Source of the DNA: an uncultured bacterium
GTDB taxonomy: Bacteria; Krumholzibacteriota; Krumholzibacteriia; JAJRXK01
Length of the DNA: 64,000 nucleotides
Direction of reading: 5' to 3'
Assembly: GCA_964601275.1 (NCBI GenBank)
Contig: CAZRMV010000001.1
Location: forward strand, 205,290-269,289
The notes beneath the pieces were generated by a model that saw only the letters and a list, made by a program, of their open reading frames with translations, made no database searches and was not told where the DNA came from. The position numbers and the translations under genes were made by a program. Below, piece by piece: positions 39,951 through 63,258 of the stretch. The stretch's first letter is position 1; every line of letters starts with the position of its first letter.

Positions 39951-42407
39951 TCAGCGGACCACCACCAGGCGCCGGGTGTCGCGGTCGCCCGCGGCCACCA
40001 GCTTGGCCAGGTACACGCCGGAGGCGACGCTACGCCCGGACCCATCCCGGCCGTCCCAGTGCACGGTATGGCTTCCCGCCTCCATCGGGCCGCTCACCAG
40101 GCGGCGCACCAACCGTCCCGCGACATCGTAGATCGCGACGCTCACCTCGCCCCGCCGGGACAGGTGGTAGACCAGGCTGGTGCGCCCCACGGTGGGATTG
40201 GGGTAGGAGCTCTCGAACCAGGCCCGGCTGGAACCCGATTTCGGCTGCACTTGAGGAGTGGGCGTTCCGTCGGGAACCTTCTCCAGGGCCACCAGCGACA
40301 TCGCCGGCAGATCCAGCGCGACGCTCTGGGAGAAGATATCGTAGGCGATGGCCTCGGCGTTGAAGTAGGGAGGCATTCCCTGCCCCGAGCCTTCGTAGCG
40401 GGCGTCCTGGGAATGGATGGCCACGCGCCAGGTCCCGGCCAGGGGAAGCCCTATCCGGTAGCTGCCGTAGTCGGTGTTGGAGAAGTTGGCGACGCACACC
40501 ACCACGTTTCCATTGAGGTCGTAGCGCTGGAAGGCGATGACGTTGCCGCTCTCGTTCATGTGGAAGACCTGGTGGGGCGCCCCGGCCCGCAGCGCGGGAT
40601 TGGTCTTCCGCAGGGCGATGAGATCCTGGTAGTAGCGGTAGATGCCGGCATAGGTGGTCTTCTTGCTCCAGTCGATGCGGTCGGCGAAGTTCGGGCCCCA
40701 GCCGATGCTCTCCAGCCACTCGGTTCCCTGCAGGATGGCGGGAATCCCCGGGGCCAGGAAGACGAGCCCCTCACCCAGCTTGGTCCTTCCCTTGGCGTAC
40801 TGGTCATCGTGGGGGAAGGTGGTGTCGACGATCGTCACGAACCGCTGACCGCCGCTCTCGACCCAGGCTTCGTCGTGCAGCTCGAGATAGTTGAGCACCC
40901 AGCGGCCGCTGAGATAGCTGCCGCCGCCGTTGATGATGTTGCGGATGACATACATCTGCGGATCACCCAGGGCCGCGGTGATGAGCTGCTGGCGCAGGTT
41001 GTCGGTGAAGTAGTCATAGTACTGGGCGTCGAAACCCGCCCCCCCCGACGATGTCGGGGTGGTGACGGCGGCATCGTCGGGAAGCTGCTCGGCGATCACC
41101 ACCTTGTCGACGAAACGTCGATCGACCATGTCGTTGAGCTCTTTCATGAGCAGCCATCCCGAAGCGCCCTGGACTCCATTCTTCATGAAGTCGGCCCCAT
41201 CCATCCGGAAACCGTCCACGTGGTATTCCTCCAACCACATGAGGGCCGAGTCGAGGAAATAGTCGCGCACCTGGGGATTGTCGAAATCGGCCTGGCTGCC
41301 CCAGGGGGTATCGACCGCCGGAGTGTCGAAGTAGATCTGCGAACCGTCGTAGTTCCAAAGGTAGTTGTCGGTGGCGGAGAAGTGGTTCCATACGAGGTCC
41401 ACCAGGACGGCGATTCCGTTCTGGTGGAAGGCGTCCACCATCTGCTTGAACTGGTCCGGGGTGCCGTACTTCCACTCGGGAGCGTACTGGCTGATCGGAT
41501 TGTACCCGGCCGAGATATCTCCGGCGAACTCGGTGATGGGATTGAGCATCACCGTGTTCACGCCCAGTTCGGCCAGAAGGGACGCGCGGGCCGCGATATC
41601 GACGTAGCGGGCGGGAAACGGCGTGGTTCCCACCGGATCATTGCGGCCGGCCCAGGTTCCCACATGCAGTTGGTAGATGACCATCTCCTCCAGGGGGGGA
41701 GTGGCGAAATCCTGGACCACCCAGGAGTAACCCTGGGGATCCTCGACGAAGGAATTGAGATTGTTGCTGGGGTCGAGTCCCCGCGCCCTCGCGTCGGCGT
41801 TCCACACCGAATTGTTGAAGTAGTACTTGTACTGCTGGCGCGAAGAGACCGAGGGAACCAGGGCGATGAAATAGGGGTCGACCCTCTGCATGAGATTGGC
41901 CAGGCCCCAGGAATTGAAGTCTCCGCGCACATAGCAGGTGCTGCGCGTCGGCGACCACACCTTGAACACCGCGCCTCCTCCGCTGGTGAGCGTCGCTCCC
42001 AAGGGCGCATGGGAGAGATGCACGTAGTCCATCAGCCAGCGATTGGTCGGAGGGAGGTCACTGACCCCGTCGGGACCGATGTAGTCGGTATCCGCTCCGT
42101 CGGTCACCTCGATGAGGTAGTAGAGGGTATCGGCGGTGGTCGCCGGTACGGTGGCTTCCCACTGGTCGTAGGGACCGCGGGTTCCCACCACGGCGGCGTC
42201 CACCCACTGCACCGTTCCGTCATCGACCTGGACGCGGGCCACGGTCAGATCGTTCTGGTAGGACTGGAAGCGAACGGTGAAGCTTTCGCCGGCCACGGGA
42301 CAACGGGGTTGCCGGTCGAGCTCGGCCTCGTGGGACAGGCCATTCCATTCGACGTTGCCGTCGGCGGTGGCCAGAACGGTCAGCAGGAGCCAGGGAAGGA
42401 GGTTCAT
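39951..42407 (-). CDS. Secreted 1,4-alpha-glucan branching-enzyme-like GH13 protein (CBM48 + GH13 catalytic core) with a C-terminal T9SS type-A sorting domain
   Basis: Signal peptide MNLLPWLLLTVLATADG (ATG 42407). VWSPTRSTCYVRGDFNSW (CBM48-like), IYQLHVGTW, DGFRMDGADFM, LELHDE GlgB-like motifs. C-terminus ...GSHTVHWDGRDGSGRSVASGVYLAKLVAAGDRDTRRLVVVR. Confidence 0.85.
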   Translation of the reverse strand: MNLLPWLLLTVLATADGNVEWNGLSHEAELDRQPRCPVAGESFTVRFQSYQNDLTVARVQVDDGTVQWVDAAVVGTRGPYDQWEATVPATTADTLYYLIEVTDGADTDYIGPDGVSDLPPTNRWLMDYVHLSHAPLGATLTSGGGAVFKVWSPTRSTCYVRGDFNSWGLANLMQRVDPYFIALVPSVSSRQQYKYYFNNSVWNADARARGLDPSNNLNSFVEDPQGYSWVVQDFATPPLEEMVIYQLHVGTWAGRNDPVGTTPFPARYVDIAARASLLAELGVNTVMLNPITEFAGDISAGYNPISQYAPEWKYGTPDQFKQMVDAFHQNGIAVLVDLVWNHFSATDNYLWNYDGSQIYFDTPAVDTPWGSQADFDNPQVRDYFLDSALMWLEEYHVDGFRMDGADFMKNGVQGASGWLLMKELNDMVDRRFVDKVVIAEQLPDDAAVTTPTSSGGAGFDAQYYDYFTDNLRQQLITAALGDPQMYVIRNIINGGGSYLSGRWVLNYLELHDEAWVESGGQRFVTIVDTTFPHDDQYAKGRTKLGEGLVFLAPGIPAILQGTEWLESIGWGPNFADRIDWSKKTTYAGIYRYYQDLIALRKTNPALRAGAPHQVFHMNESGNVIAFQRYDLNGNVVVCVANFSNTDYGSYRIGLPLAGTWRVAIHSQDARYEGSGQGMPPYFNAEAIAYDIFSQSVALDLPAMSLVALEKVPDGTPTPQVQPKSGSSRAWFESSYPNPTVGRTSLVYHLSRRGEVSVAIYDVAGRLVRRLVSGPMEAGSHTVHWDGRDGSGRSVASGVYLAKLVAAGDRDTRRLVVVR

Positions 42408-42604
42408 CACTACTCCGGGAGCCAAAGGATGCGCTGCGTCGGCTCGCCGGCCGAAGAACGCAGGAGGGGAGCCGCAGTGGATTCGCGCCGGGTCGGCCGT
42501 CGTCTCTTCCGATCGAGGGCAGACCGCGCTCCACAAAGTATACTGGAAATGCGGGATTCCGGTATGGACCGGATCGGGTGGATCGGAGAAAGACCGGTCC
42601 CGCC

Positions 42605-43717
42605 TCAGGAGGCCTGGAAGAGAAGGCGCTTGCCGTCGCGGGGATCGAAGAAATGGGCCCGGGACAGGCGCAGACGCAGGTCGACCTCCTGGTCGACGGC
42701 AACCGGGACATCGGGCGTGATGCGGCTGATGAAGGTCTCCTCGCCCAGGCGCCAGTAGAGCAGGGTCTCGCTGCCCAAGGGTTCGATCACGTCGATGGTC
42801 GAGCGTAGGCGGGCGCCGAAGGTTCCCTCGCGGTCCGCGGTGGCGAGAGGGATGTCCTCCGGCCGCAACCCGAGGACCAGCTTCTTTCCCATCCACTCGT
42901 CCCATGCCGGGGGGATGGTTCCCTCCAGGGGCAGGCGCCGTCCGGCCAGCTCGAGGAAGCCGCCTTCCTCGCCGTGGAGCGAGACGGTCCAGAAGTTCAT
43001 GCGCGGAGTGCCCACGAAGCCGGCCACGAAACGATTCGCCGGCCGCTCGTAGAGTTCCATCGGGGTGGCGATCTGCTGGATCTCTCCCTTCTCGATGACC
43101 GCGATGCGCGTGCCCATGGTCATGGCCTCCACCTGGTCGTGGGTCACGTAGATCATGGTCGCGCCCAGGCGGTGATGCAGGCGGGAGATCTCAGTCCGCA
43201 TGTCCGTCCGCATATCCGGGTCGAGATTGCTCAGCGGCTCATCGAAGAGGAACACCCGGGGCTGGCGGACAATGGCCCGTCCCACCGCCACCCGCTGCCG
43301 CTGCCCACCGCTCAGTTGACCCGGCTTGCGATCAAGCATTTCCGTGATGCCCAGGATCCCAGCTGCGGCGCGCACGCGTTCGTCGATCTCCTTCCGCGGA
43401 GTCTTCCGGATGCGCAGGCTGAGCGACATGTTCTCGTACACACTCATGTGCGGGTAGAGGGCGTAGTTCTGGAACACCATGGCGATGTCGCGCTGGCGCG
43501 GCGGGACATCGTTGACCACCTCGCCGTCGATGCGGATCTCTCCCTCGCTGACCTCTTCCAGTCCGGCAACCATCCTCAACAGGGTGGATTTGCCGCAGCC
43601 GGAGGGGCCGACCAGCACCATGAACTCGCGGTCGGCGACGGCGAAGGTGGCGTCACGCACCGCGGTGACACCTCCTTCGTAGACCTTGCTGACGTGATCG
43701 AGGGTGACCTGGGCCAT
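42605..43717 (-). CDS. Sugar ABC transporter ATP-binding protein (MalK/UgpC/MsmX type, with C-terminal TOBE-like domain)
   Basis: GPSGCGKST, LSGGQRQRVAVGRAI, LFDEPLSNLD. Start ATG 43717 (MAQVTLDHVSKVY) with GGGAG SD. No permease or SBP gene adjacent. Confidence 0.9.
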   Translation of the reverse strand: MAQVTLDHVSKVYEGGVTAVRDATFAVADREFMVLVGPSGCGKSTLLRMVAGLEEVSEGEIRIDGEVVNDVPPRQRDIAMVFQNYALYPHMSVYENMSLSLRIRKTPRKEIDERVRAAAGILGITEMLDRKPGQLSGGQRQRVAVGRAIVRQPRVFLFDEPLSNLDPDMRTDMRTEISRLHHRLGATMIYVTHDQVEAMTMGTRIAVIEKGEIQQIATPMELYERPANRFVAGFVGTPRMNFWTVSLHGEEGGFLELAGRRLPLEGTIPPAWDEWMGKKLVLGLRPEDIPLATADREGTFGARLRSTIDVIEPLGSETLLYWRLGEETFISRITPDVPVAVDQEVDLRLRLSRAHFFDPRDGKRLLFQAS

Positions 43718-43831: not shown

Positions 43832-46800
43832 TCACCGGACCATGGTGAGCTTCCTGGTCTCCACCCGATCGCCCGCTCGCAAGCGCGCGAAGTACACCCC
43901 GCTGGCCAGGGGGCGGCCTCTGCCGTCGCGGCCATTCCAGACCACCTGGTGTTCCCCGGCCGCTTGGTTCGCGTCCAGCAGGTGCACCACCACCCGCCCC
44001 GCGGGGTCGAGGATGCTCAGGGACACCGTGCCGGCGTCGGGCACGCGATAGTCCAGGACGACCCGGGGGTTGAAGGGGTTGGGATGGGCCCGCAAGAGAA
44101 GCGGCCCCCGGCGGATCGCCGGGCTTGCCGTGGCGGTGGTTCCAACGATGCGCACGATCCGGGGAGGGGCGTTGCTGCCGGGGTTGGTGATGCTCTCCGC
44201 GCCGCCGGGATCGAGGATGTAGAGCGAGCCGTCGCTGCCGAAGGCGAGGACATCGCTGCCGTAGAGGTTCTCGAATCCCTCGGCGAAGACCGAGACGCTT
44301 CCGTCCGGCTGCACCACGAGGATGCGTTCGTTCACGGCGTCGGCCAGGTAGGCCACCCCTTCACCGAATGCCCCCCGTGGGGCGAAGGCCACGTCGATGG
44401 CCCCGGAGACCAGCGGATCATCCACCCAGATCGAGACCTTGCCCGCCGCGTCCACCCGGAAGACGCGCCCCGTGGAGCCTCCCTGGAGATCGGGATCGCA
44501 GACGATGAGCTGCCCGGCCCACGGATGACCGGCCGGGGCCGGCGCCATTCCCCGCGGGTTGGTCATGCCGGTTGCCCACAGACTGCCGCTGCCGTCGCCT
44601 GCGATGCGATAGATTCCCCCGCCCTCCGGAGACGAGAGGTAGGCCCAGCCGGCCAGCGCGCCGGTTCCCGTGACCACGGCCTCGCAATGGGTGGGGGAGG
44701 GGAAGAGAACCGACCACACCCCATCGCCGTCCCGCCGCAGCAGGTTCAAGGGCGTCGAGACGAAGAGGTCTCCTCCGAGCTTTCCAGTGGTGTCCTGGTC
44801 GATCGAAAGCACCACGTCGAGGAACTCGGGTCGGACCGCACCACTGGACACCCGCTGGTTCGCGTCGACCTCGAGGATCCTCCGGCGGGTCACGTCCCCC
44901 ACGAGGAGGCGGTCCATGCGGGGGGAGGGTCCCCAGGGGTCGGCGGGAAGGATCTCGACTCCCAGGGGATGATGCAGGTTGAAGGGGGCGCGGACCCGGA
45001 CCGCGAAACCCGGCGGAAGGGTGAGCCCGGCGTTTCCCAGGGCGGAGTGGAACACGCTCTTGAAGGGCACCGGGGTGGCGCTTCCATCCTGCGCGGGGAG
45101 TCCGGCGTCGACGGTCAGTTGCCAGGTGCCGCCGTCAGGCCAGGGGGTGGTGAGGGTGAGCACCGCGGTGTCGCCGTTGCGCCAGCTCAGGTGGAAGGGA
45201 ACGGGAGGGGTGAAGGAGAACCACGCCGAAGAGGAGGCCAGCATCGGCCGGTCGAAGTGGACCTCGATGGGCTGGTTGGGATCCTGGATCCACCCGTCGT
45301 GGTGGGGGTCCACGTTGACGACCCGGGGCGTCGTCGCCGCCGGGTCGAGGGTGAAGAGGTACGCGGAGCGGCTGGGCAACCGAAGGGTGATCTGTCCCCC
45401 CGCCTGCACGGTCACACTTTGCCGGGTTTGCAGTCGGTCATACACCACGGCTCCAACGGGCCAGCGGGCTGTGACAGTGACGGTGGTGTCCTGCCACGAG
45501 GTGTTCATGGCCACCAGGACGTCCCAGGTGAAGTGCTGCGGATGGGTGCGCAGGTACACCAGGGTTCCCGCGTCGTCCGCGTCGGCGGAGAGCACCTGGA
45601 GACCTCCCCGGCGCAGGGCCGCGAGCTCGTGCCGGAGATCCTGCAAGCGTCGGATGAGCGCGTAGAGCGGGGTGGCCATGTTGAAGCCGTCCCCCTGGCT
45701 GGGGCCGAAATCCCACTGGCCGTCCCAGAGATCCTCGCGGTTCCAGGGATCGCCGCCCCCGTCATATTCCTGTTCGGTGCCGTAGTAGACAATGGGCATC
45801 CCCGGCCAGGTCAATAGCCAGGTCAAGGCCTGACGCAAGAGGGTGTCGTCCTGTCTCGCCAAGCCCTGCGCGGCCAGGCGGCCCATGTCGTGGTTGTCGA
45901 AGAAGTTGCCGAGTTGCCACCGGACGCTCGGATCGTAGGAATTCGAATCGCCCATGACCCAGGACAGAATGGCGGGCGCTCCCTGGCCCGAAAACACCCA
46001 CCGGGCGGCGAAGGCCATGGGAAACCAGGTCACCGAGTTCAACGCGTAGGCGCCGCCGCCCTGGGTTCCGGTGTAGATTCCCACCTTGGCCGGGTCTCCG
46101 TCGAAGACTTCGCCCATCAGCAGGAAGTTGTCCTTTCCTTCGGCCGCGGCCGCCGCGCGGATCCGGGGTGCGAAGTCCTGCCAGAAGTCGAGTTCGACGT
46201 GCTTGACCGTATCGATGCGGAAACCGTCACAATCGGTTTGCCGGATCAACTGCGAATAGGCGTCGACCAGGATGTCGCGCACCGCGGGAAGCTCGGTTTT
46301 CAGGTCGTCGAGACCGAAGAGTTCACCGCGGATCTGCTCGGGGTCGGTGAAGTCCTGGATCTCGCCGAAGGAGTGATACCAGGAGAGATCGTCGAATGGG
46401 GGAGGATATCGGTCGCCGTTGTTCCACCAGCCGAGCTGGTAACTCCCCGAGGGATCGTAGGCCGGATAGGCGGGATCCGTTGATCCGATGAGATCGCCCA
46501 TGTGGTTGGCGACCACGTCCAGGATGACGTAGAGCCCCCGGGCATGGGCCGCCTGGACGAAGGTCTGCAACGCGGAGAGTCCTCCCATCTGGGGCGAGAT
46601 CGTGAACAGGTCGCGCGCCGCGTAGCCGTGGTATTCACCGTGCGTGTTGAGAACCACCGGGGAGATCCAGACCGCATCCACCCCCAGGCCTTCGATGTAA
46701 TCCAGCTTCTCCTGCAGGCCCTGGAAGTCGCCCCCGTGCGTACGGCTTCCATCGGCCGGATCGTAGCTGCCTCCCAGATTGTCATTCGATGGATCCCCGT

Positions 46801-46933
46801 TGCGGAAACGGTCGGTCACGATCTGGTAGATGGTGATGTCGCGCCAGGAGGCGGGTGAGGGAGTTCCGGCGAGGGCGGGCGATGTCCAGGTGAGGATCGC
46901 GCCCAGCGCGAGTGCGGTGTGCCGGAGGGTCAT
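43832..46933 (-). CDS. Secreted alpha-amylase-family (GH13) enzyme with a long beta-propeller-like extension and a C-terminal T9SS type-A sorting domain (1033 aa)
   Basis: Signal peptide MTLRHTALALGAILTWTSPALAG. GH13 motifs DVVANHMG, GFRIDTVKHV, EVFDGD, FFDNHD. C-terminus ...NPFNPRVVLDYRVPDAGTVSLSILDPAGRVVVHLLDANQAAGEHQVVWNGRDGRGRPLASGVYFARLRAGDRVETRKLTMVR. Confidence 0.85.
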   Translation of the reverse strand: MTLRHTALALGAILTWTSPALAGTPSPASWRDITIYQIVTDRFRNGDPSNDNLGGSYDPADGSRTHGGDFQGLQEKLDYIEGLGVDAVWISPVVLNTHGEYHGYAARDLFTISPQMGGLSALQTFVQAAHARGLYVILDVVANHMGDLIGSTDPAYPAYDPSGSYQLGWWNNGDRYPPPFDDLSWYHSFGEIQDFTDPEQIRGELFGLDDLKTELPAVRDILVDAYSQLIRQTDCDGFRIDTVKHVELDFWQDFAPRIRAAAAAEGKDNFLLMGEVFDGDPAKVGIYTGTQGGGAYALNSVTWFPMAFAARWVFSGQGAPAILSWVMGDSNSYDPSVRWQLGNFFDNHDMGRLAAQGLARQDDTLLRQALTWLLTWPGMPIVYYGTEQEYDGGGDPWNREDLWDGQWDFGPSQGDGFNMATPLYALIRRLQDLRHELAALRRGGLQVLSADADDAGTLVYLRTHPQHFTWDVLVAMNTSWQDTTVTVTARWPVGAVVYDRLQTRQSVTVQAGGQITLRLPSRSAYLFTLDPAATTPRVVNVDPHHDGWIQDPNQPIEVHFDRPMLASSSAWFSFTPPVPFHLSWRNGDTAVLTLTTPWPDGGTWQLTVDAGLPAQDGSATPVPFKSVFHSALGNAGLTLPPGFAVRVRAPFNLHHPLGVEILPADPWGPSPRMDRLLVGDVTRRRILEVDANQRVSSGAVRPEFLDVVLSIDQDTTGKLGGDLFVSTPLNLLRRDGDGVWSVLFPSPTHCEAVVTGTGALAGWAYLSSPEGGGIYRIAGDGSGSLWATGMTNPRGMAPAPAGHPWAGQLIVCDPDLQGGSTGRVFRVDAAGKVSIWVDDPLVSGAIDVAFAPRGAFGEGVAYLADAVNERILVVQPDGSVSVFAEGFENLYGSDVLAFGSDGSLYILDPGGAESITNPGSNAPPRIVRIVGTTATASPAIRRGPLLLRAHPNPFNPRVVLDYRVPDAGTVSLSILDPAGRVVVHLLDANQAAGEHQVVWNGRDGRGRPLASGVYFARLRAGDRVETRKLTMVR

Positions 46934-48889: not shown

Positions 48890-48967
48890 GAGCCCTTGGA
48901 ATCAGGGGCCGGAAAGTGGTAGTCTGGAAACGGTTGGGCCATCAAGCCTTGGCCGGGAGGTACCCGG

Positions 48968-50044: not shown

Positions 50045-50165
50045 GGGATCTCTTTCAAGAGTGCCAGCCCGTCCCCTTCTCCCCTTCTCCTCTTGTCCCT
50101 GGTAAAGCGTCCTGTCCTATGCTACGCACTACTGGAGATCCCCTTCATGCCCGCGGAGGCGACGC

Positions 50166-50573
50166 ATGGACACCATCCAGATTGCAGGTACGCAGTACGA
50201 ATACGCTACGCGTTGGCAGCGATGGCTGGGTCAGTTCCTCGACAGCCTGATCTACGGGGTCATCGCGATCATTCCTATGATGATCCTCGACATCATCCTG
50301 CCCGAAGAGTACGCGGTGGTCCTGGGCATCCTTCCCGCCCTCTGGTATCTCCTGTTCCAGGACGGCATGCCCGAGGGCCAGAGCCTGGGCAAGAAGGGGG
50401 TCGATACCAGGGTTCTCGACGCCAAGACGGGCCGGCCGTGCACCTACGGGCAGTCGTTCATCCGCAACATCTCCCTCATCGTGCTGAACTGGATCGACTG
50501 GATCTTCATCTTCGGAGAGAAGCACCAGCGCCTCGGGGACAAGTTGGCAGGCACCGTGGTGGTCAAGCTCTGA
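50166..50573 (+). CDS. RDD-family membrane protein
   Basis: GGAGG SD. WQRWLGQFLDSLIYGVIAI ... KHQRLGDKLAGTVVVK is typical RDD topology. Confidence 0.7.
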   Translation: MDTIQIAGTQYEYATRWQRWLGQFLDSLIYGVIAIIPMMILDIILPEEYAVVLGILPALWYLLFQDGMPEGQSLGKKGVDTRVLDAKTGRPCTYGQSFIRNISLIVLNWIDWIFIFGEKHQRLGDKLAGTVVVKL

Positions 50574-50694
50574 ATCCTCTTTGGTCGGTGGCCGGTGGGA
50601 GTCTCGGACGCTGTGGGCCGCTTCGGGGTGAGTTCCTCGATCCGGCGGGTCGGCGTGCGTCCAACCCGATCCGAGCCTTGCGAAGGTGGCTTTC

Positions 50695-54168: not shown

Positions 54169-57100
54169 ATGATGCCCCCCCGTATGAATCGACCGGCCCT
54201 GGCCGCCATCCTCCTGCTGGGCCTCGCACTGCTCTGCGCGTCGACCTGCTGGGCTACTCCGGTGACCTTCCGTTTCGAGAGTTCCGCCCAGCGGGTGTTC
54301 CTGGCGGGTGAGTTCAACAACTGGTCGGACAGTGCACAACCGATGACCCAGGGAGAGGACGGCATCTGGAGTGTCACCCTCGACCTCGCGCCGGGAGACT
54401 ACCAGTACAAGTACGTGGCCGACGGTACCTGGATCACCGACCCCCACAGCGTCGACACCACCGACGACGGGTTCGGCGGGAAGAACAGCATCGTCCACGT
54501 GGGCAAGGACGCCATGACCGTCGGGGTGGGCGCTGCGGCGGGAACGGCCGGCGCGAAAGCCGCCGCCGAGGGGGCGGAAGCCGTGGGTGGCGGAAAGAAT
54601 GCCCAGGGGAACGCCGGGGTCCAGGCCAAGGCCGGCCAGCGCCTGGTGCATTTTGGGATCTCCGCCCCCGGTGCAGGCAGCGTCTACCTGGCCGGTGAAT
54701 TCAACGGCTGGAACGCCAGCGGCGAGAAAATGGAGGACCCCGACGGGGACGGGGTGTTCGAAGTGACCCTTCCGTTGAAGCCGGGGCGCTACCAGTACAA
54801 GTACGTGATCGACGGCACCTGGAAGGAGGATCCGGCCAGCGCCGAGTACGCCGATGACGGTTTCGGAGGCAAGAACAGCGTGGTCGCCGTCGTGGCGGGC
54901 GACGGCGTGCAGGAGGCCGCCGCCGGTAGCGGCGGGGCGGGGCCTGGGGGCGGAGCACAGGGAGCGGCCGGCACCGAGGGGGCGTCTGGAGCTTCGGGAA
55001 CCACTGGAGGGGAGGCGGTGCACGGCACCTTCAGTGTCACCTTCAGCTACCAGCCGGTGATCTCCGGGGTGGGCTCGGTGATGCTCGCGGGGACCTTCAA
55101 CGACTGGAACGTGGGCGCCACTCCCATGACCGACCCCGATGGGGATGGGACCTACACCGCCACCCTGCTGTTGCCGGCGGGCGAATACCAGTACAAGTTC
55201 GTGGTCGACGGCAACTGGATCACCGACGAGAAGGCCACCGCCTTCGCCGATGATGGCTTCGGGGGCAAGAACAGTGTCATCACCGTCGATGCCAGCTACG
55301 AGAAGATGGACCTGGAGGTCGGCGACGGCAGAATCTACCTGAAGGGACTGGAGGTCGTTCTCGACTATCCCACCGTCAACGCGGTCGACGAAGGGCAGCT
55401 CCTGCTACGGGCGAAGGCCTACCGCGACGATATCCAGGAACTGCGGCTGCACTACCGGGTGGGCGATGGAGAGCCCCAGACGGTGCCGATGCTGGCGGCG
55501 GAGAAGGATCCGGTCTTCGTGACCTACCGCCGGCCGCTCGAGTTCACCGGCGACGGTGATCTGCGCTTCACCTTCGAGTACCGCGACGCAAACACGCATC
55601 GCTTTGCCACCGCGTCGGGAGACTTCACGGAGACCCTTCCTCCGACCGACCAGTGGGTCCTCTACAACGAGAAGATCCTTCCTCCGTTCCGCATTCCGAT
55701 GTGGGCCCAGCAGGGCATCTACTACCAGATCTTCCCCGATCGTTTCCTCAACGGTGACCAGAGCAACGACCAGGACTTCCAGGAGCCCTACTACCAGGGC
55801 CGCAACGAACTGCCCGCGTCGGGCAAGACCAATGGCGAGTATTTCCATTTTGTCGAGGACTGGGACGATGTTTCCGGTCTGGTGAAGAGCCCCTATCGCA
55901 CCGACGGCAAGCCCGACTACTTCAGTTTCTACGGTGGGGATATCGAGGGCGTGCGCCAGAAGATCCCCTACCTGAGGGATCTGGGGATCACCATCATCTA
56001 CTTCAACCCGGTCACCGATGCTCGAAGCAACCATCGCTACGACCCCTGTGACTATCTCAAGCTCGACCCGCACCTGGGCACCGAGGACCAGTTCAAGGCC
56101 TTCACCGAAGAGTGCGCGGAGAACGGCATCCGGGTGATCATCGATATGGCCTTCAACCATACCGGCGACTGTCATTTCGCGTTCCAGGACGCGCTGAAGA
56201 AGTGGAAGGAGAGCAAGTACTTCAACTGGTACGAGTGGAAGAAGCGTCCACCCAGCTATCCCCTGCCGCCGGGCGAGAAAGCCATCGACTACTACGACTG
56301 CTGGTGGGGCTTCGGGTTGCACCCGAATCTCAACTACGACCTCAGCCGGCCCAATGCCCAGGAGAACGGGATCAAGGACACCAAGGATGCCGATCCGAAC
56401 TGGGACGTGGTCAACTACGTCCTGAAGGTTCCGGCGTACTGGATGGGAGAGTTGGGGGTTTCCGGTTTCCGCCTGGATGTTCCCAATGAAGTGCCGTTCT
56501 GGTTCTGGAGACTCTTCCGGGAGAAATGCCGCGAGGTGAAGCCCGACCACGTGCTCATCGGCGAGATCTGGGGCGATGCCCGCCAGTGGATCGGACCGGA
56601 GGTCTTCGATGCGGTGATGAACTACCGTTATTTCAAGGATCCGGTGGTGAAGTGGATCGGTCAGAAGAAGGGCAACAGCGCCACCTTCGACCAGGAACTC
56701 GCCGGAGGACGCACCCGGTACCCCCTGCAGGCAGTGCGGGCCCAGATGAATCTCATCGACAGCCACGACACCCGCCGCTTCTTGAGGGTCGCCGGGGAAG
56801 ACGCCCGCCGGCTGCGGCTGGCCGCGACCTTTGCCATGACCTACGTGGGAGCCCCCCATATCTACTACGGCGATGAACTGGCCCTGACCGGAGGCAAGGA
56901 CCCGGATTGCCGCCGAACGATGCCCTGGTCGACGATGGACGCGCCGGCCCGCCAGGAGACCTTGCGGCATTACCAGGAGTTGACCCGCCTGCGCCGCGAG
57001 CACGACGCGCTCAGCCTGGGTGATTTCATTCCCGTGCTCACCCAGGGGCAGGTGTACGCCTATCTGCGGGTCGAGGGCGATGACAAGGTGCTGGTGGTGT

Positions 57101-57273
57101 TGAACAACGGGGAGGCTCCGGCCTCGGTGGTGGTTCCGGTGGGCAACGCCCGGATTCCCGACGGAACCTCGATCGAATTCCTCCTTGGAGAGGGCGAGGC
57201 GACCACGGTGACCCGAGGGGCGGTGAAGCTGCAGGTGCCCGGGGTGGACGCGGTGATCGTCGCCTTGCGGTGA
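54169..57273 (+). CDS. Secreted GH13 alpha-glucanase (neopullulanase/cyclomaltodextrinase-like catalytic domain) preceded by three tandem CBM48/AMPK-beta-type glycogen-binding modules
   Basis: AGGAG SD. Signal peptide MMPPRMNRPALAAILLLGLALLCASTCWA. Three repeats of F...AGEFN.W.....PMT...DG.....L.L.PG.YQYKYV.DG.W..DP......DDGFGGKNS. GH13 motifs IDMAFNHTGD, GFRLDVPNEV, GEIWGD, IDSHDTRR. Confidence 0.9.
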   Translation: MMPPRMNRPALAAILLLGLALLCASTCWATPVTFRFESSAQRVFLAGEFNNWSDSAQPMTQGEDGIWSVTLDLAPGDYQYKYVADGTWITDPHSVDTTDDGFGGKNSIVHVGKDAMTVGVGAAAGTAGAKAAAEGAEAVGGGKNAQGNAGVQAKAGQRLVHFGISAPGAGSVYLAGEFNGWNASGEKMEDPDGDGVFEVTLPLKPGRYQYKYVIDGTWKEDPASAEYADDGFGGKNSVVAVVAGDGVQEAAAGSGGAGPGGGAQGAAGTEGASGASGTTGGEAVHGTFSVTFSYQPVISGVGSVMLAGTFNDWNVGATPMTDPDGDGTYTATLLLPAGEYQYKFVVDGNWITDEKATAFADDGFGGKNSVITVDASYEKMDLEVGDGRIYLKGLEVVLDYPTVNAVDEGQLLLRAKAYRDDIQELRLHYRVGDGEPQTVPMLAAEKDPVFVTYRRPLEFTGDGDLRFTFEYRDANTHRFATASGDFTETLPPTDQWVLYNEKILPPFRIPMWAQQGIYYQIFPDRFLNGDQSNDQDFQEPYYQGRNELPASGKTNGEYFHFVEDWDDVSGLVKSPYRTDGKPDYFSFYGGDIEGVRQKIPYLRDLGITIIYFNPVTDARSNHRYDPCDYLKLDPHLGTEDQFKAFTEECAENGIRVIIDMAFNHTGDCHFAFQDALKKWKESKYFNWYEWKKRPPSYPLPPGEKAIDYYDCWWGFGLHPNLNYDLSRPNAQENGIKDTKDADPNWDVVNYVLKVPAYWMGELGVSGFRLDVPNEVPFWFWRLFREKCREVKPDHVLIGEIWGDARQWIGPEVFDAVMNYRYFKDPVVKWIGQKKGNSATFDQELAGGRTRYPLQAVRAQMNLIDSHDTRRFLRVAGEDARRLRLAATFAMTYVGAPHIYYGDELALTGGKDPDCRRTMPWSTMDAPARQETLRHYQELTRLRREHDALSLGDFIPVLTQGQVYAYLRVEGDDKVLVVLNNGEAPASVVVPVGNARIPDGTSIEFLLGEGEATTVTRGAVKLQVPGVDAVIVALR
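54259..55287 (+). repeat. Three tandem ~85-aa CBM48-like domain repeats (nt 54259-54498, 54637-54891, 55027-55287) separated by Gly/Ala-rich linkers
   Basis: Protein-level repeat with conserved LAGEFN.W / PG.YQYK(Y/F)V.DG.W / DDGFGGKNS blocks, seen directly in the translation. Confidence 0.7.
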
Positions 57274-57522: not shown

Positions 57523-60500
57523 ATGCGCGTCGTTCCCTCCCGTCGCACCCTGGACGTGCTTCTTTCTCCACCGCCTCCCTCCGGCGCGCTACGTATCGCT
57601 CTCGTTGGCACCCTGGGGTGGCTTCTCGCCCTGGGCATGGCTCCCACTCCGGCCGCCATGGCCACCACCTGGAACACGCCCATCGTCGATGGCCCCATCC
57701 ACGACCTCCCCGATTCCAATGACTGGCAGCCGGACGAGCTCTTCTTCGAGGACCCGGCGGGAGACAGCAACTGGGGACCCTTCAACGACTTGCAGGGACT
57801 GTGGGTCACCTGGGACGAGAACGGTCTGTATGTCGGGGTGAGCGGGCAGCTCTGGGACACCGCCGGTCCGGGCACCGGGGGCAACTCGGTCAACGTCTAC
57901 CTCGATGTCGATTTCGGGCGGGGCACCGGGATCTCCAACATGGACGCGATCGACCCGAACGCCTTGGGCGCGGTCACCCGCAATCTCTGGAGGCCGCTCC
58001 AGGTCGGCGGCGGCTTCGGCGCCGATTTCGGGTTCACCTCGTGGGCGGGCACCTACGATCGGGGGATCCTCGATCTCTTCGATCCGCTTCTGCCGGTGAA
58101 TCTCATCACCGACGAGAGCCGGCAGGTCGGGGTGAATCAGCCCTGTCTCGACCCGACCGGCCCCTGCCAGGGTTTCGACAAGCAGGGAAACTTCTCCTTT
58201 GAATTCTTCATCCCCTGGCACGATCTCTACGCCCGGCTCTATCCGAACCTGACCACGACCGTCCCTCCCGGGGCGGCGATCGCCCTGGTGGTGAACATCG
58301 TCGGCGGCGGTGATTCGATGTCGGAGGAGTCGATTCCCTCGCAATCGACCTTCCGGGTGATCGACCGGCCGGTCACCCTGGTGGTCGACGCCGATGCCGA
58401 CGGGGTGCCCGACCGGGACTGGCCTCCCTCGGGCAGTATCTCGGGAACCGTGAACTTGAGCGATCCGGCGGACACCACCACCGTGGTCGACGTAGTGGCC
58501 TGGCTGCCCGACGGAACCGAAGCCGCGCGCGACCAGACGCCCCCGGGAGGGGGCGCCTACCAGCTGACCCGCCTGGGCGCCGGGGATTATACCGTCGGTA
58601 TCGAGAGCATCTTCTACGTGGCCAATCCGCAGACCGTGCAAGTGGGAGAGAACCAGGATGTCACCGGAATCGACTTCGACGCCTTGCGGGTGCGCAGCGG
58701 GATCGATCTGCGGCTGCGCTACCTGGACGGTCCGGAGAGCAGCTCACGCAGCCTCGATCTGGCGTTCCGGCTGAGCGGGCGCACCGATCTGGGATCGGAT
58801 TTCTCGGTCGATTTCATCATTGGACCGCAGGATTCCCTGGTGGTGGGTCTGCGCCCGGTCCCCGCCGGCGACTATCACCTGAGCGTGGTGCCCCAGTGGC
58901 CCACGTCGCAACCGGTACCCGATCCGCAACGCTCCGGATATACCCGCATCGAACGGGATCTGCGGGTCCCCGACAACGATGGCATCGTCGATCTGGGCAC
59001 CTTGGACCTGAAGGTGGTGCGGCCCACCCAGGTGGCGTTCTTCGCTCCCGACGAGACGGGCGACGGAGAGCGGATCACCGCGGATTTCACTACGGTGAGT
59101 CTCCCCTCGGAGAACTTCTACGCCTACCTGGTGGTGGAGGCCGGGTTCGTCGACGACGAGGGAAACGAAGCGATCTACGGCCTGCCGGGGCTGCAGATCA
59201 CCACCACCACCATGGATCCGGCGTTTGCGACCCAGGGAGTGGTCGAACTGTGGTCGGCGGCGGACACCACCCGCAGCGCCCAGCCGCTGGCCGATCCCTC
59301 GGTGTGGCTACCCCCTTCGGGCGAGCCACCGGTGGGGAGGGCCCGTTTCCTGTTGACCGACGACGCCCAGGAGGTCGTTCGTCTCTTCGCCGCGGGCAGC
59401 GGGATGGACGGCGTCCTCGAGGTGGGGGTCCAGCCCATCGAGCCGGCCGAGATCGCCCTGTCCGCCCAGGGCGATGCGATGGTGGCCGGGGCACAGATCC
59501 CGCTGCAGGGGCGGCTGCTGGACGTGGCCGGCAACCCGGTGTTCCTCAACGAGTTCCTGGTCTTCTTCGATATCACCCCGAATGTTCCGGGGGTGGGTCC
59601 CAGTCTCGCCGTCACCGCGAGCGACGGTTCGTTCGGCACCGATGGCGACGTGGCCTTCACCACCACGGTGAGCGGCGACTACACCGTGCAAGCCAAAGGC
59701 ACCACCGACTCGGGGAAGGATATCGTCTCGCCCCAGCTCGCCTTCCATGTGGCCCCGGATCTCCCCTACCAGCTGGAACTGGTCGCCGAGTTGAAGAAGG
59801 TGGACGGCAGCCCGGTGGGGCTGAGCTATCGCGTCCGGCAGACCGACCGGTTCGAGAATTCCTCGCCGGCCACCGGGGTCACGGTGCAGATCCAGGCCGG
59901 TCCGCCGGAGATCGTGGCCTCGGCTCCGGCCAGCGTCGTCCTGGACGACGCGGACGCGACCGGGACCTTCGATGTGCAACTCGTTCCGGGAAGAACCGGG
60001 GTGGTCGAGTGCACCGTGACCGTGCCGGGTCTCGCCCGGCAAAGCACCACCCTGCGCACCCCGGTGCTTTTCGGCCTGGTGGCCACCGACGAGGTGGCGC
60101 CCGAGAGCGACACGAACCACAACGCGAATCCGGACATCGATCTGACCGCGTTGTACGCGTTCAGCCAGAACGACACCCTCGTGGTGAAGCTTCCATTTCG
60201 CAGCAACTTCAACGGCGCCCACATGGCGCTCCTGTTGGAATCGACGGGAACCCCCGAGGGAGCGGTCGGCGACTATTTCGGCTTTCCCATCTTCTACCTG
60301 CACGACCTGTTGCCCGATTTCGTCTTCACCTACAAGTACGCCGCCGACGATTACGCCGACCTGCGGCGGCCGCCTCCGGGGGGCGATCCCAGCCAATGGC
60401 AGTGGTACGATATGCAGGCTGCCGCCTGGGTCAGCGAATTCAATGACAATGTGAACGCCAAGGCGCAGGGTTGGGTGTCCAAGGACGAGAGCGCGGTCAC

Positions 60501-63258
60501 CTTCCGCATTCCCTTGACGGTGCTCGGTGGGGGTTTCACCGCGGGTCGCGATACCCTCCGGGCGCAGGTGTACGTGATGCAGGAAGACGGGGGCGAGAAG
60601 AGGCCGGCCCTCGATTCGGTGCCCCACGACGCCACCGTGGACATGGTGCCCCCTCCCGGGGCGGGAGAATGGTGGGAAAATCTTCCGCCGCGCGTCGACC
60701 TGAAGAACTGGGCCGTCTTCGTGCCCGAGGTCTTGCCCGGGCTGTTGAGCCTGGAAGATGTCGCGTTCGATCCTCCCGAGGTCACCCAGGGGGAGACCAC
60801 TCTCTTGACCGCGCGTCCGGTGATCGATGTCCAGGCGGTCCCCGATCCCATCTTCCAGGTCTTTGCCGATTTCTCCCGCTTCGGAGGCGACGCGCTCACT
60901 CCCATGGACGACGAGGGCCGAAACGGCGATCTCGTGGCGGGAGACGGCATCTACAGCGTCGAATTGACCATCGATCCTTCCGAACTCGAAGGGGACGCCG
61001 CCATTCTCGTCCAGGCCACCGAACTCAATTCGGGGGAAAGGGCCTCGGCCACCGCCGACCTGGCGATCACCGGGCAGCCCCAACTGCAACCCATCTTGAG
61101 CTTCGACGACCCCGCGGGGGACGATCACGGCCCCAATCATCCAGGGGAGAAATTCCTCTACTACACCTATCCCACCAACGGCGTCTTCTTCCCCGGTGTG
61201 TTCGACCTGTTGGGCATGCAGGTCTTCGATGCGGGCGAGAAGCTGGTGTTCCGGGTCGATGTGGGCGAAGTCACCGACCCCGCCCAACCCGACGCGGCCA
61301 ACTGGAATGCGCCGTTCCCGACCGACCAGTTGTGTCCCGAGGGTTCCCGCATCGACCTGAACCTGCAGAACGTGGTGGTTCTCATCGACAACATTCCCGG
61401 GAAGGGTTCGATCAAGCTGCCCGACAACCGTTGGGCCGATGTCGCCCGGCAGGACGCCTGGGATTACGCGGTGATCGCCGACGGCTGGTGGAAGGGGATG
61501 GTGCGCAGCAACGGATCGTCGTCTTCGGGAAGTTGGGACATCTTCCGCAACGACGAGGACTATTTCTTCTGTGTCAACGCCATCGACAACACCATCGACA
61601 TGTTCGTGGACAAGAAGGTCCTCGAAGTGGGAGGGCTGAGCGGAGCGGAACTGCAAGAGGTGATCGACCAATGGGACTTCATCGTCCTGATGAGCGGGCA
61701 CGATGGCGATTCCAACGACAACAACTGGGGAGGGATCCGTTGGGTCAACGAGGGCCGGCCGCAGTGGCAGTTCGGCGGGGGCAAGAACGGAGAGTCGGGC
61801 CGGGAGCGTGACGCCAACATCATCGACATCATGACCCACGCGGGGCTCGACCCCACCGGGAAGCCGAAGCCGCCCGGCCGGCCCCAGGAGGAGCAACTCG
61901 ACTTCACCACCCCGGAAGCCGAGCGCCGCTTCTCCGACCCCAAGATCCTGGTATCGGTCGAGTTGGAGGCCGAGGAGCTCATCGACAACGTCCCCCCCCA
62001 GATCACCTTCCTGAACGATCCCGATCGCGCCCTGCGGCAGTGGGCCATCCTCAAGGGAGCGCCGGTCTCTCCCATCGTGCGGATCGAGGACGACAACGAC
62101 GTGGTCTCGGCGAAGATGCGCTGGCGCGGAGTAGGAGAACCCCGGAGCGCGGCCCGCGAAGCGCCGCTCGGCCTCTTGCGCAGCGATCTGGACAGCGATG
62201 GGGTCACCTTCATCGGCGACGTGCCTTTCGAGCAGTTCAGCGACCCTTCGGTGACGAACCTGGTATCCCGGTTGAAGCCGGATGGCACCATCGAGAAGGT
62301 GCGGTACATGATCCTCTCGTTCGAGGCGGTCGACCGGGTTGGGAACGCCACCCCCCAAAGCAGCACCGAATACCTGCTCGAGGTTCCCGAACAGCCGGTC
62401 GAGGAAGTGATCCAGTCGGTGCTTCCCGATTCCCTGGAGGAAGGCGGCACCGATCCGGTGCAATTCGACCTGCCCGAGGGAAGCCGCCTTCGCCTGCCGC
62501 GTGGGTTCGTCGATGATCTCTTCGCGCGCGATGACAGCTCACGGGTGGAATTGCGGTACCGCGCGTTCGCCCTGGAGGATCTCGACCTGGCTCCGCACGG
62601 CGGAAGCAACCCGAGCGTCCTGCTTCCGGAGAACCGCTATCTGCAGGCGGCCCGGTCGTTCCAGCTCTTCTGGGTCCATGGAGACAGCACGGTCGAGGAG
62701 ATCCAACAGCTTCCCGAATCGGCCGAGTTCTCCATCCACTTCCCCCATTTCCTGATCGAAGGGGAAAGCCCGCCCAATCTCCAGTACTTCCACTACAGCG
62801 AAGCGTCGAAACGCTGGGTCCTGGTGGGAGGCCATAGCGAGGTCGAGGGCAGCACCTTGACCGCCGAGGTGGTGGAGACCGGTCTGTATGGGGTCTTCAC
62901 CAAGGGATCGAAGCTCAAGGACGAGACCCTGGTCACCGGTCTGCAGTTGTCGCCGAATCCGTTCTCGCCCAACGGGGATGGAGTGCACGATTTCCTGAAC
63001 ATCAGCTATGTGATTCCCGACCAGATCAACCAGGTCGTGGTCGAGATCTACGACCTGCGGGGTGAGAAGGTTCGCACCCTCCAGCTCTTCGAGGGAATCG
63101 GAGATGTGACGAACCGTACCACCGGCCTGGTGTGGGACGGACGCGATGAGCGGGGCAACTATGTTCCCATGGGTATCTACGTCTGCCGGGTCGAGGTGGA
63201 GGGGAAGTTCCTAAAGCGCTGGGAACGGGCGACCGCGGCGGTGGTGGTGGTACGATGA
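57523..63258 (+). CDS. Giant secreted multidomain protein (1911 aa) with a C-terminal T9SS/FlgD-Ig-like sorting domain; function unknown, possibly a cell-surface carbohydrate-binding or adhesin scaffold
   Basis: ATG 57523 (GAAGGGG SD). Signal peptide MRVVPSRRTLDVLLSPPPPSGALRIALVGTLGWLLALGMAPTPAAMA. A related D-P-A-G-D...GP... module appears twice, near residue 100 and near residue 1230. C-terminus ...NPFSPNGDGVHDFLNISY...GLVWDGRDERGNYVPMGIYVCRVEVEGKFLKRWERATAAVVVVR. Confidence 0.8.
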   Translation: MRVVPSRRTLDVLLSPPPPSGALRIALVGTLGWLLALGMAPTPAAMATTWNTPIVDGPIHDLPDSNDWQPDELFFEDPAGDSNWGPFNDLQGLWVTWDENGLYVGVSGQLWDTAGPGTGGNSVNVYLDVDFGRGTGISNMDAIDPNALGAVTRNLWRPLQVGGGFGADFGFTSWAGTYDRGILDLFDPLLPVNLITDESRQVGVNQPCLDPTGPCQGFDKQGNFSFEFFIPWHDLYARLYPNLTTTVPPGAAIALVVNIVGGGDSMSEESIPSQSTFRVIDRPVTLVVDADADGVPDRDWPPSGSISGTVNLSDPADTTTVVDVVAWLPDGTEAARDQTPPGGGAYQLTRLGAGDYTVGIESIFYVANPQTVQVGENQDVTGIDFDALRVRSGIDLRLRYLDGPESSSRSLDLAFRLSGRTDLGSDFSVDFIIGPQDSLVVGLRPVPAGDYHLSVVPQWPTSQPVPDPQRSGYTRIERDLRVPDNDGIVDLGTLDLKVVRPTQVAFFAPDETGDGERITADFTTVSLPSENFYAYLVVEAGFVDDEGNEAIYGLPGLQITTTTMDPAFATQGVVELWSAADTTRSAQPLADPSVWLPPSGEPPVGRARFLLTDDAQEVVRLFAAGSGMDGVLEVGVQPIEPAEIALSAQGDAMVAGAQIPLQGRLLDVAGNPVFLNEFLVFFDITPNVPGVGPSLAVTASDGSFGTDGDVAFTTTVSGDYTVQAKGTTDSGKDIVSPQLAFHVAPDLPYQLELVAELKKVDGSPVGLSYRVRQTDRFENSSPATGVTVQIQAGPPEIVASAPASVVLDDADATGTFDVQLVPGRTGVVECTVTVPGLARQSTTLRTPVLFGLVATDEVAPESDTNHNANPDIDLTALYAFSQNDTLVVKLPFRSNFNGAHMALLLESTGTPEGAVGDYFGFPIFYLHDLLPDFVFTYKYAADDYADLRRPPPGGDPSQWQWYDMQAAAWVSEFNDNVNAKAQGWVSKDESAVTFRIPLTVLGGGFTAGRDTLRAQVYVMQEDGGEKRPALDSVPHDATVDMVPPPGAGEWWENLPPRVDLKNWAVFVPEVLPGLLSLEDVAFDPPEVTQGETTLLTARPVIDVQAVPDPIFQVFADFSRFGGDALTPMDDEGRNGDLVAGDGIYSVELTIDPSELEGDAAILVQATELNSGERASATADLAITGQPQLQPILSFDDPAGDDHGPNHPGEKFLYYTYPTNGVFFPGVFDLLGMQVFDAGEKLVFRVDVGEVTDPAQPDAANWNAPFPTDQLCPEGSRIDLNLQNVVVLIDNIPGKGSIKLPDNRWADVARQDAWDYAVIADGWWKGMVRSNGSSSSGSWDIFRNDEDYFFCVNAIDNTIDMFVDKKVLEVGGLSGAELQEVIDQWDFIVLMSGHDGDSNDNNWGGIRWVNEGRPQWQFGGGKNGESGRERDANIIDIMTHAGLDPTGKPKPPGRPQEEQLDFTTPEAERRFSDPKILVSVELEAEELIDNVPPQITFLNDPDRALRQWAILKGAPVSPIVRIEDDNDVVSAKMRWRGVGEPRSAAREAPLGLLRSDLDSDGVTFIGDVPFEQFSDPSVTNLVSRLKPDGTIEKVRYMILSFEAVDRVGNATPQSSTEYLLEVPEQPVEEVIQSVLPDSLEEGGTDPVQFDLPEGSRLRLPRGFVDDLFARDDSSRVELRYRAFALEDLDLAPHGGSNPSVLLPENRYLQAARSFQLFWVHGDSTVEEIQQLPESAEFSIHFPHFLIEGESPPNLQYFHYSEASKRWVLVGGHSEVEGSTLTAEVVETGLYGVFTKGSKLKDETLVTGLQLSPNPFSPNGDGVHDFLNISYVIPDQINQVVVEIYDLRGEKVRTLQLFEGIGDVTNRTTGLVWDGRDERGNYVPMGIYVCRVEVEGKFLKRWERATAAVVVVR

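Follow-up and report, generated by a model that had tools for sequence, protein, structure and literature searches.

A candidate SusC/SusD-free alpha-glucan utilisation system in an uncultured diderm bacterium

Here, we describe a group of genes carrying alpha-glucan-specific modules in a stretch of 64,000 nucleotides (the window) from contig CAZRMV010000001.1 of an uncultured bacterium of the Krumholzibacteriota. The group begins at position 39951 and continues past the end of the window. From its domain content, signal peptides, C-terminal sorting domains (CTDs), gene order and conservation, we consider it probable that the region is a conserved system for the utilisation of alpha-glucans (starch, glycogen or pullulan-like polymers) in a diderm host, resembling the starch utilisation system (Sus) but free of SusC and SusD. 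A preliminary description of the window had proposed an extracellular alpha-glucan degradation locus, and an extracytoplasmic locus of this kind is supported by the domains, the catalytic motifs and the signal peptides.

The genes discussed are g1, g2 and g3 on the minus strand, followed on the plus strand by g7, g8, g9 and the beginning of h296. The window has a GC content of ~65%, and genuine genes were told from the abundant shadow open reading frames by their third-position GC (GC3). Our gene calls match the independent JGI/Logan calls on the source metagenome contig.

Enzymes of the locus and their export signals

The exported alpha-amylase, g3 (43832-46933, minus strand, 1033 aa), consists of a signal peptide, a domain of glycoside hydrolase family 13 (GH13; residues 28-530), a Big_5 domain, a repeat region and a type A CTD. 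It reaches 173.4 bits on PF00128 (cut-off 22), carries the motifs GFRIDT, MGEV and NHD, and has as its closest solved relatives bacterial (e.g. Anoxybacillus) and fungal alpha-amylases (E 1.7e-68 to 1e-45). Judged by these matches, g3 is a true alpha-amylase. By inspection, its extension holds about six blade-like repeats at a spacing of ~45 aa, and a beta-propeller is plausible; a hidden Markov model (HMM) search of the extension for a propeller family matched Big_5 alone.

The second exported GH13 enzyme, g1 (39951-42407, minus strand, 818 aa), has a signal peptide followed, in Pfam and NCBIfam, by a weak Alpha-amylase_N domain similar to carbohydrate-binding module (CBM) family CBM34, then CBM48, GH13, Alpha-amylase_C and a C-terminal FlgD_ig/Por_Secre_tail region, which is a type A CTD. 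The gene itself had been recognised earlier, with an open reading frame (39951-42905) that was 498 nt (166 codons) too long. Its true start is at 42407; the over-extended stretch overlaps the end of the malK gene, and its GC3 is non-coding. The score of g1 on PF00128 is 66.6 bits (cut-off 22), and inspection finds the GH13 catalytic motifs complete (DLVWNH, GFRMDGADF, IAEQ, ELHDE), the catalytic-triad regions II, III and IV reading GFRMDG, IAEQ and LHDE.

The earlier name for g1, GlgB-like, does not survive the comparison with curated models. It scores 226.7 bits on NF003811 (cut-off 741) and 185.3 bits on TIGR01515 (cut-off 464), and its TreZ score is equally high (225.4 bits, cut-off 538.8). 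Because the equivalog cut-offs for GlgB and TreZ are both missed, we do not call it GlgB. Among solved structures, branching enzymes come closest, at about E 1e-39 (best GlgB match in the PDB, E 2.4e-39). By its sequence, g1 is an exported, predicted active GH13 enzyme of the CBM48-bearing clade, rather than a demonstrated branching enzyme, and we leave its specificity unassigned. More than 120 clusters of homologues, with 54-77% identity, have the same architecture, nearly all with a CTD; the few named members carry the labels Eisenbacteria, Krumholzibacteriota or Gemmatimonadota. Public pipelines name these homologues '1,4-alpha-glucan branching enzyme'. Automatic annotation calls g1-type proteins branching enzymes in hundreds of cases, yet they appear to be exported GH13 enzymes to which no specificity can be assigned. 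As a separate observation, regulators resembling MalT (WHD_MalT/TPR_MalT), one of them a fusion with a Ser/Thr kinase, adjoin homologues of g1 or g8 in metagenome-assembled genomes (MAGs) of Eisenbacteria (L004:6129-9500 and L009:19945-23226; here and below, L numbers denote the loci that were compared). The window locus itself yielded no regulator.

Two further enzymes lie on the plus strand. The first, g7 (51789-53930, 713 aa), is of the amylo-alpha-1,6-glucosidase type: it scores 230.1 bits on PF06202 (GDE_C; cut-off 21), and 147.2 bits on the archaeal-type equivalog TIGR01561, below the cut-off of 364. GDE-type enzymes are usually regarded as cytoplasmic. The N-terminus of g7, MNRVLHRRRAEILLFFAFLGGILLLATG, is a signal or anchor sequence, and the homologues at L007:7776-9863 and L008:5225-7252 likewise start with signal peptides; g7 is therefore probably a periplasmic or membrane-tethered debranching enzyme. 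The second, g8 (54169-57273, 1034 aa), combines a signal peptide (the N-terminus finishes with ...LLCASTCWA, before TP) with three CBM48/AMPK1_CBM modules, three X25 modules and a GH13 domain of the neopullulanase/maltodextrin-glucosidase type, as identified with Pfam and NCBIfam. It scores 197.2 bits on PF00128 (cut-off 22), has the motifs GFRLDV, IGEI and SHD, and reaches 323.9 bits on NF008051 and 278.3 bits on NF041090, each under its cut-off. Neither g8 nor any of its 120 best homologues has a CTD (PF13860 or PF18962). Since g7 and g8 have a signal peptide only and no CTD, we infer that both are probably periplasmic. The g8-like GH13 enzyme of four Cloacimonadota loci (L053, L055, L056, L061) is a lipoprotein with an N-terminal lipobox.

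The C-terminal tails were assigned with TIGR04183 for type A CTDs (cut-off 23 bits), TIGR04131 for type B (cut-off 35) and Pfam CHU_C (cut-off 27). On TIGR04183, g1 (41.3 bits) and g3 (33.0 bits) are both above the threshold, their C-termini reading ...VVVR or ...TMVR, which agrees with the earlier expectation that GH13 enzymes here carry type IX secretion system (T9SS) tails. That expectation had been wider: three enzymes were credited with a signal peptide and the same CTD, and were placed at the surface. Two enzymes, g1 and g3, have both features; g8 has no CTD, and g7 and g8 are more probably periplasmic. By inspection, g1, g3, g7, g8 and g9 all start with hydrophobic signal-like segments, as do homologues of g1, g7, g8 and g9. 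Plausible AxA-type cleavage sites are seen in g1, g3 and g9, and the mature N-termini align just past the predicted cleavage sites.

It could still be argued that these are ordinary intracellular enzymes of glycogen metabolism (GlgB, GlgX/GDE, MalZ) whose signal peptides and CTDs are annotation artefacts, as the public branching-enzyme label on g1 homologues and a public call of g9 that lacks its signal peptide would suggest. We give this next to no probability, and the sequence data effectively refute it: hydrophobic N-termini and CTDs are kept across more than 100 clusters of g1 homologues, the CTDs of g1 and g3 exceed curated thresholds, g1 falls far under the GlgB and TreZ equivalog cut-offs, homologues of the GDE enzyme and of g8 have signal peptides too, and the alignment of mature N-termini begins where cleavage is predicted.

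Exported enzymes are thus the better reading of the locus, and they are less exceptional than they had seemed. CBM48 is common in secreted pullulanases, and exported CBM48 enzymes are common, which makes it a weak premise that CBM48 proteins are normally intracellular, as the preliminary description had assumed. Moreover, the T9SS-tagged carbohydrate-active enzymes already predicted in Bacteroidota include one of GH13_10 with a type A CTD (PMC10792170). For both reasons, the surprise of finding CTD-tagged secreted glucan enzymes is modest.

The giant surface protein and the operon beyond the window

The largest protein of the locus, g9 (57523-63258, plus strand, 1911 aa), comprises a signal peptide, a conserved N-terminal domain of ~260 aa, a chain of Ig-like domains, a module similar to the C-terminal part of glucodextranase and a type B-like CTD. 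The public call of this gene is 1866 aa long and starts at M46, which cuts off the signal peptide (57523-57660 affected). We set the start at the ATG at 57523, because homologues show a signal peptide directly before the conserved motif TYN[ST]P..DG. Pfam matches are to PF09985 (102 bits), CHU_C (32 bits) and FlgD_ig (31 bits). Two AlphaFold models, built with homologue alignments (mean pLDDT 71.6 and 72.9), give a nearly all-beta chain of Ig-like sandwiches, the N-terminal 250 aa being poor (pLDDT ~50). Foldseek relates these models to S-layer proteins (EA1, SbsB, Sap), the adhesin FdeC and Ig chains of the alpha-2-macroglobulin type, and it matches the Glucodextran_C region to the C-terminal domains of Arthrobacter glucodextranase (1ug9, E 1.9e-12). 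No enzyme domain was found in g9 with HMMs run on isolated segments, with a PDB sequence search, which returned no match, or with the two AlphaFold models and Foldseek. Together, the models point to a non-catalytic surface protein. Thirteen homologues of g9 were detected.

The tail of g9 opens with SPNPFSPNGDGVHDF and matches CHU_C, a type B model, above its threshold. It is not the sorting domain of g1 and g3, and we regard it, from its profile scores, as intermediate between types A and B.

In the preliminary description, the locus ended with this giant protein at 63258. The operon in fact runs ~8.6 kb further, as read from the source contig JGI Ga0117756_1000044 (locus L010), and a PorV-like gene, h296, starts at 63255. 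The two genes overlap by 4 nt, at the stop codon of g9 and the start of h296, and the window includes 63255-64000 of h296 (plus strand, first 248 of 296 aa). h296 encodes a PorV/PorQ-like outer-membrane beta-barrel with a signal peptide and the C-terminus ...NLSF; its match to NF033709 (PorV_fam) is near full-length (residues 24-296 against 4-326 of 326; E 2.5e-17, 63.5 bits).

The order after g9 is h296, h507, c767, c263, a substrate-binding protein (SBP), two permeases and then another CTD protein. The gaps from g9 through h296, h507, c767 and c263 to the SBP gene are -4, 14, 20, 12 and 6 nt; 83 nt separate the SBP and permease genes, and 11 nt the two permease genes. c263 (263 aa) has the lipobox LMGC and two CBM48 modules; in the SBP the lipobox is WSGC, and the protein resembles MalE with a score of 120 bits. 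The CTD protein after the permeases (L010:24328-25601) is large and FlgD_ig-tailed, and its position is conserved in L011 (L011:24426-25637, 1459 aa); at its N-terminus, IIIDGVNDF...DDTGD, it is similar to the N-terminal domain of g9.

Upstream, g2 (42605-43717, minus strand, 370 aa) encodes the ATPase of a MalK/UgpC-type sugar ATP-binding cassette (ABC) transporter, with the domains ABC_tran, OB_MalK and TOBE_2. It scores 472.8 bits on the sugar-ATPase subfamily model NF008653, above the cut-off of 432, and 384.9 bits on the MalK equivalog NF008233, below 568. Within the window MalK is alone, as had been stated; on the contig it is not an orphan, because a MalE-like SBP and two permease genes follow downstream. 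The window thus holds the upstream two-thirds of the system and about one third lies beyond it, including the most distinctive part, the core made up of a CTD cargo, a PorV-like barrel, two barrel candidates, a CBM48 lipoprotein and MalEFG.

The two barrel candidates are h507 and c767. c767 has 767 aa: a signal peptide, CBM48 and then ~650 residues without a family. h507 (507 aa) has no family match in Pfam or NCBIfam, and is homologous to the part of c767 that follows the CBM (hhalign 94%, E 1.4e-7). Among the listed homologues of both, every protein whose start has not been over-extended has a signal peptide, and the last residue is an aromatic one (F, Y or W) in all of them. Sub-threshold matches to the TonB-receptor barrel (PF00593) occur in 3 of 27 c767 members, the best of them, in L016, at 25.3 bits against a cut-off of 27; a Pfam scan of h507 members returned no match. 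Run on single sequences, a hydrophobic-moment test failed to set apart the PorV-like positive control, and it was replaced by alignment-averaged hydrophobicity with controls. Here, period-2 amphipathicity dominates in h507 and c767: their beta/alpha ratios are 1.53 and 1.78, close to the 1.60 of the PorV-like control, whereas the SBP, permease, GDE and GH13 controls lie at 0.91-1.03. h507 and c767 are likely beta-barrels on this evidence, and a role as an oligosaccharide channel is plausible. These two families, one of them fused to a starch-binding module, are in our opinion prime candidates for a new outer-membrane glycan channel.

Conservation of the core and a proposed route for alpha-glucans

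To survey the core, we searched species genomes of GTDB with an alignment of c767 and then compiled a synteny matrix by tblastn. The colinear core g9-h296-h507-c767-c263-ABC is present in ~25 species-level MAGs of the Krumholzibacteriia and Eisenbacteria, with identities of 43-50% in Krumholzibacteriia and 27-32% in many Eisenbacteria. The synteny comparison that the preliminary description had called for is therefore positive, with the order from g9 to the permeases kept in these ~25 species. In L011, where g9 is 51% identical, MalK and the g3 homologue lie on one strand, adjoining each other, and GDE, g8 and g9 onward lie divergently on the other; after g9 come proteins of 338 aa and 545 aa, a 761-aa protein with CBM48, a 204-aa protein with two CBM48 modules, the SBP and two permeases. 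MalK adjoins the cluster in L008 as well as in L011. The GDE gene adjoins g8 in L007 and L011, lies one gene upstream of g8 in L008 and, in many loci of Eisenbacteria, is located downstream of the core, a few kb away.

The enzymes vary around this core. L012, from an Eisenbacteria MAG with 33% identity in g9, keeps the core, g9 through transporter, but is flanked by a GH57: in place of GH13 enzymes, the core is followed (L012:24374-25442) by a small protein of the Glucodextran_C type and a GH57 enzyme that bears CBM48. In the relative L009, the glycosidase complement includes a pullulanase. The enzyme complement appears to be interchangeable around a fixed outer-membrane and transport core.

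Reduced forms of the locus occur in Cloacimonadota and other Eisenbacteria, with h296, h507, CBM48 proteins, a g8-like GH13 enzyme and ABC genes. The gene directly upstream of h296 in these loci encodes a protein of 380-550 aa with a C-terminal CTD. Indeed, a CTD-bearing gene stands directly upstream of the h296 homologue in 13 of 13 reduced loci and in the ~25 g9-containing loci, and this pairing holds even where the shorter protein replaces g9. The Cloacimonadota loci L053, L055, L056 and L061 have a CTD protein of ~380-415 aa, a PorV-like barrel and an h507 homologue in that order, and in L053 the short CTD protein matches the N-terminal domain of g9. Because the reduced loci retain the CTD gene upstream of h296, the invariant unit is CTD cargo, PorV-like barrel and h507. 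In Bacteroidota, type B CTD cargo is genetically linked to, and physically paired with, PorP/SprF-like barrels (PMC9143113; PMC12618676). We regard h296, from its position and profile match, as a candidate cognate shuttle or anchor for g9. The pairing of CTD cargo with a PorV-like barrel would extend the cargo-shuttle pairing of Bacteroidota to other phyla and to nutrient acquisition.

A sceptical reader could see here a loose neighbourhood of independent alpha-glucan genes, brought together largely by chance, with g1 in an unrelated regulon. Indeed, the g1 homologues have no conserved neighbours and stand alone among housekeeping genes in four relatives (L003-L006), for which reason we count g1 as only loosely part of the cluster; four unrelated genes split the locus in the window; and the glycosidase set varies among relatives, with the GH57 of L012 and the pullulanase of L009. 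Fortuitous grouping is nevertheless very improbable for the whole, as the core order is kept in ~25 species down to ~30% identity, neighbouring genes between g9 and the SBP gene are spaced by -4 to 20 nt, MalK, g3, GDE, g8 and g9 are contiguous in L011, and every component bears alpha-glucan-specific modules.

An integrated alpha-glucan utilisation system, which we prefer, has counterparts among known systems. Like the Sus of Bacteroides thetaiotaomicron and Sus-like polysaccharide utilisation loci, the cluster brings together a surface alpha-amylase, outer-membrane passage, periplasmic trimming and inner-membrane import; c263 is comparable to the surface starch-binding lipoproteins SusE/F, and g8 to the neopullulanase SusA. 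In contrast to Sus, it lacks SusC (a TonB-dependent transporter with a plug) and SusD: the preliminary description had noted their absence, and no SusD, Plug or TonB_dep_Rec match is found across the window and the 8.6 kb that follow it. Moreover, its surface enzymes are predicted T9SS cargo, whereas those of Sus are lipoproteins, its binding modules are CBM48/X25 and not Sus-specific CBMs, its inner-membrane uptake depends on a MalEFGK-type ABC transporter, and its outer-membrane candidates, h507 and c767, belong to no described family. With the maltose regulon of E. coli (LamB, MalE, MalFGK2, MalS) it has in common a MalE-like SBP, two permeases and a MalK-type ATPase, together with periplasmic enzymes for trimming alpha-glucans and a dedicated step of outer-membrane passage. 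It differs from that regulon in having no LamB homologue, in a binding protein that is a lipoprotein, in the addition of extensive machinery for extracellular depolymerisation and binding, and in a malK gene ~20 kb from malEFG on the opposite strand.

The g9-h296 pair recalls SprB-SprF and PG1035-PorP of Bacteroidota, where a gene for a large, non-catalytic, CHU_C-tailed protein is likewise followed by one for a small barrel of the PorV/PorQ/PorP superfamily and the pairing is conserved across many genomes. However, h296 scores best on PorV/PorQ and not on PorP/SprF, and below the cut-off; the g9 CTD lies between types A and B, in a host phylum where T9SS is not demonstrated; and the pair sits in a carbohydrate-uptake operon, not in a motility locus. 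The region had also been likened to an amylosome. As in the Ruminococcus bromii amylosome and in cellulosomes, several starch-active GH13 enzymes with multiple CBMs are placed outside the cell along with a very large non-catalytic protein. Unlike in those systems, no cohesin or dockerin was detected (E<=0.01 for the window proteins, E<=1 for the downstream proteins), which leaves the amylosome label unsupported; g9 is known here as a non-catalytic chain with no indication of enzyme docking, and the host is a diderm that would use CTD-type export.

We could then propose the following route. g3 and g1 would pass the inner membrane through Sec and then, by means of their type A CTDs, the outer membrane through a type IX-like pathway; at or near the cell surface, or released from it, they would cut the alpha-glucan polymer. 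g9 would be exported through its type B-like tail and held at the surface by the PorV-like h296. At the outer membrane, alpha-glucan would be bound by g9, by the lipoprotein c263 with its two CBM48 modules and by the CBM48 of c767, and oligosaccharides would pass through c767 and/or its paralogue h507. In the periplasm, the neopullulanase-like g8 and the GDE-type debrancher g7 would shorten and debranch them, and the MalE-like lipoprotein, the two permeases and the MalK-type g2 would import the products.

Several observations weigh against this interpretation. No genes for the T9SS machinery (SprA/Sov, PorV, PorU, PorK/L/M/N) lie within the 64-kb window, and outside Bacteroidota, in other phyla of the Fibrobacteres-Chlorobi-Bacteroidetes (FCB) group, T9SS is only suspected (PMC11285876); we infer its use in the host phylum from the tails described above. 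The tail of g9 stays below both curated cut-offs, with 20.0 bits on TIGR04183 and 26.1 bits on TIGR04131, where the match is confined to the model's N-terminal half (4-45/85). The PorV_fam score of h296 is below its cut-off of 90, and on the PorP/SprF model TIGR03519 it is no match, with 13.9 bits against 90.55. In the PDB, profiles of h507 and c767 matched nothing beyond CBM48, and no Pfam family is above threshold for h507 or for the non-CBM48 part of c767. Three starch-binding modules are odd for a periplasmic enzyme, and g8 may be at the surface through another route. Finally, the isolation of g1 homologues described above belongs here as well.

The outer-membrane genes could also be explained differently. 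In this alternative, h296, h507 and c767 would form a dedicated anchoring platform for g9, of the kind seen in PorP-PorE-PG1035 or SprF-SprB; g9 would be an adhesin or S-layer-like coat tethering the cell to glucan particles, and oligosaccharides would enter via an unrelated porin encoded elsewhere. The resemblance of g9 to S-layer and adhesin Ig chains fits this idea, as does the order CTD gene-h296-h507, which does not change even in loci that lack c767 and g9 or have others in their place; moreover, type B cargo is reported to bind PorP-like barrels for surface anchorage (PMC9143113). We nevertheless think it unlikely. In the ~25 core loci, c767 has its own CBM48 and is placed between h507 and the genes for the CBM48 lipoprotein and the ABC transporter, which fits capture and uptake better, and two large paralogous barrels exceed the needs of known cargo anchors.

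It is tempting to speculate further that Krumholzibacteriota, Eisenbacteria and Cloacimonadota share an undescribed, SusC/D-independent module for capturing and taking up glycans at the outer membrane, which would comprise a CTD-tagged surface protein delivered to a PorV-like barrel, an oligosaccharide channel made of the paralogous barrel families h507 and c767, and a CBM48 lipoprotein that feeds an ABC importer. We put this forward tentatively, with rather more doubt than belief. Were it true, the shared module would be a third architecture for polysaccharide uptake in diderms, beside SusCD and TonB-receptor/porin systems, and one that is mechanistically coupled to type IX secretion. To our knowledge, the uncultured phyla that carry the cluster are without SusC/D, and the cluster is a concrete, conserved and testable candidate for polysaccharide uptake in these phyla, which are represented by MAGs from environmental and engineered samples. 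In the open-access literature, we found no description of the cluster, of T9SS in Krumholzibacteriota or Eisenbacteria, or of CBM48 combined with outer-membrane proteins. In overall kind, the region is a polysaccharide utilisation locus; the newly described part is the conserved outer-membrane module with its two unannotated families.

Other genes in the window

Between the two strands of the locus lie four plus-strand genes (47138-51741) that form an insert unrelated to the glucan system. Three have matches in Pfam or NCBIfam: an MscS channel (47138-48889), an RDD membrane protein (50166-50573) and a quinone oxidoreductase (50695-51741). The fourth (48968-50044) encodes an orphan secreted protein of 358 aa, which has a clear signal peptide and no match in Pfam or NCBIfam. 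We place these genes outside the system because the syntenic locus L011 has none of them: there, the g3 homologue and GDE are only 293 nt apart.

Elsewhere in the window, other proteins have tails or repeats of related kinds. A protein of 731 aa (12468-14663, minus strand) joins a metallohydrolase of the CehA/McbA family to an fn3/Ig domain and a FlgD_ig-type CTD, and is a probable CTD cargo unrelated to glucan. Another, of 954 aa (29548-32412, plus strand), belongs to no Pfam family. It may be a further CTD cargo, since there is a weak match (18 bits) between its final ~50 residues and the CTD portion of PorZ. A third, of 1428 aa (1905-6191, minus strand), has Sortilin-Vps10/BNR repeats and a C-terminal DUF1684, and a similar Sortilin/BNR protein is encoded near the g1 homologue in L003.

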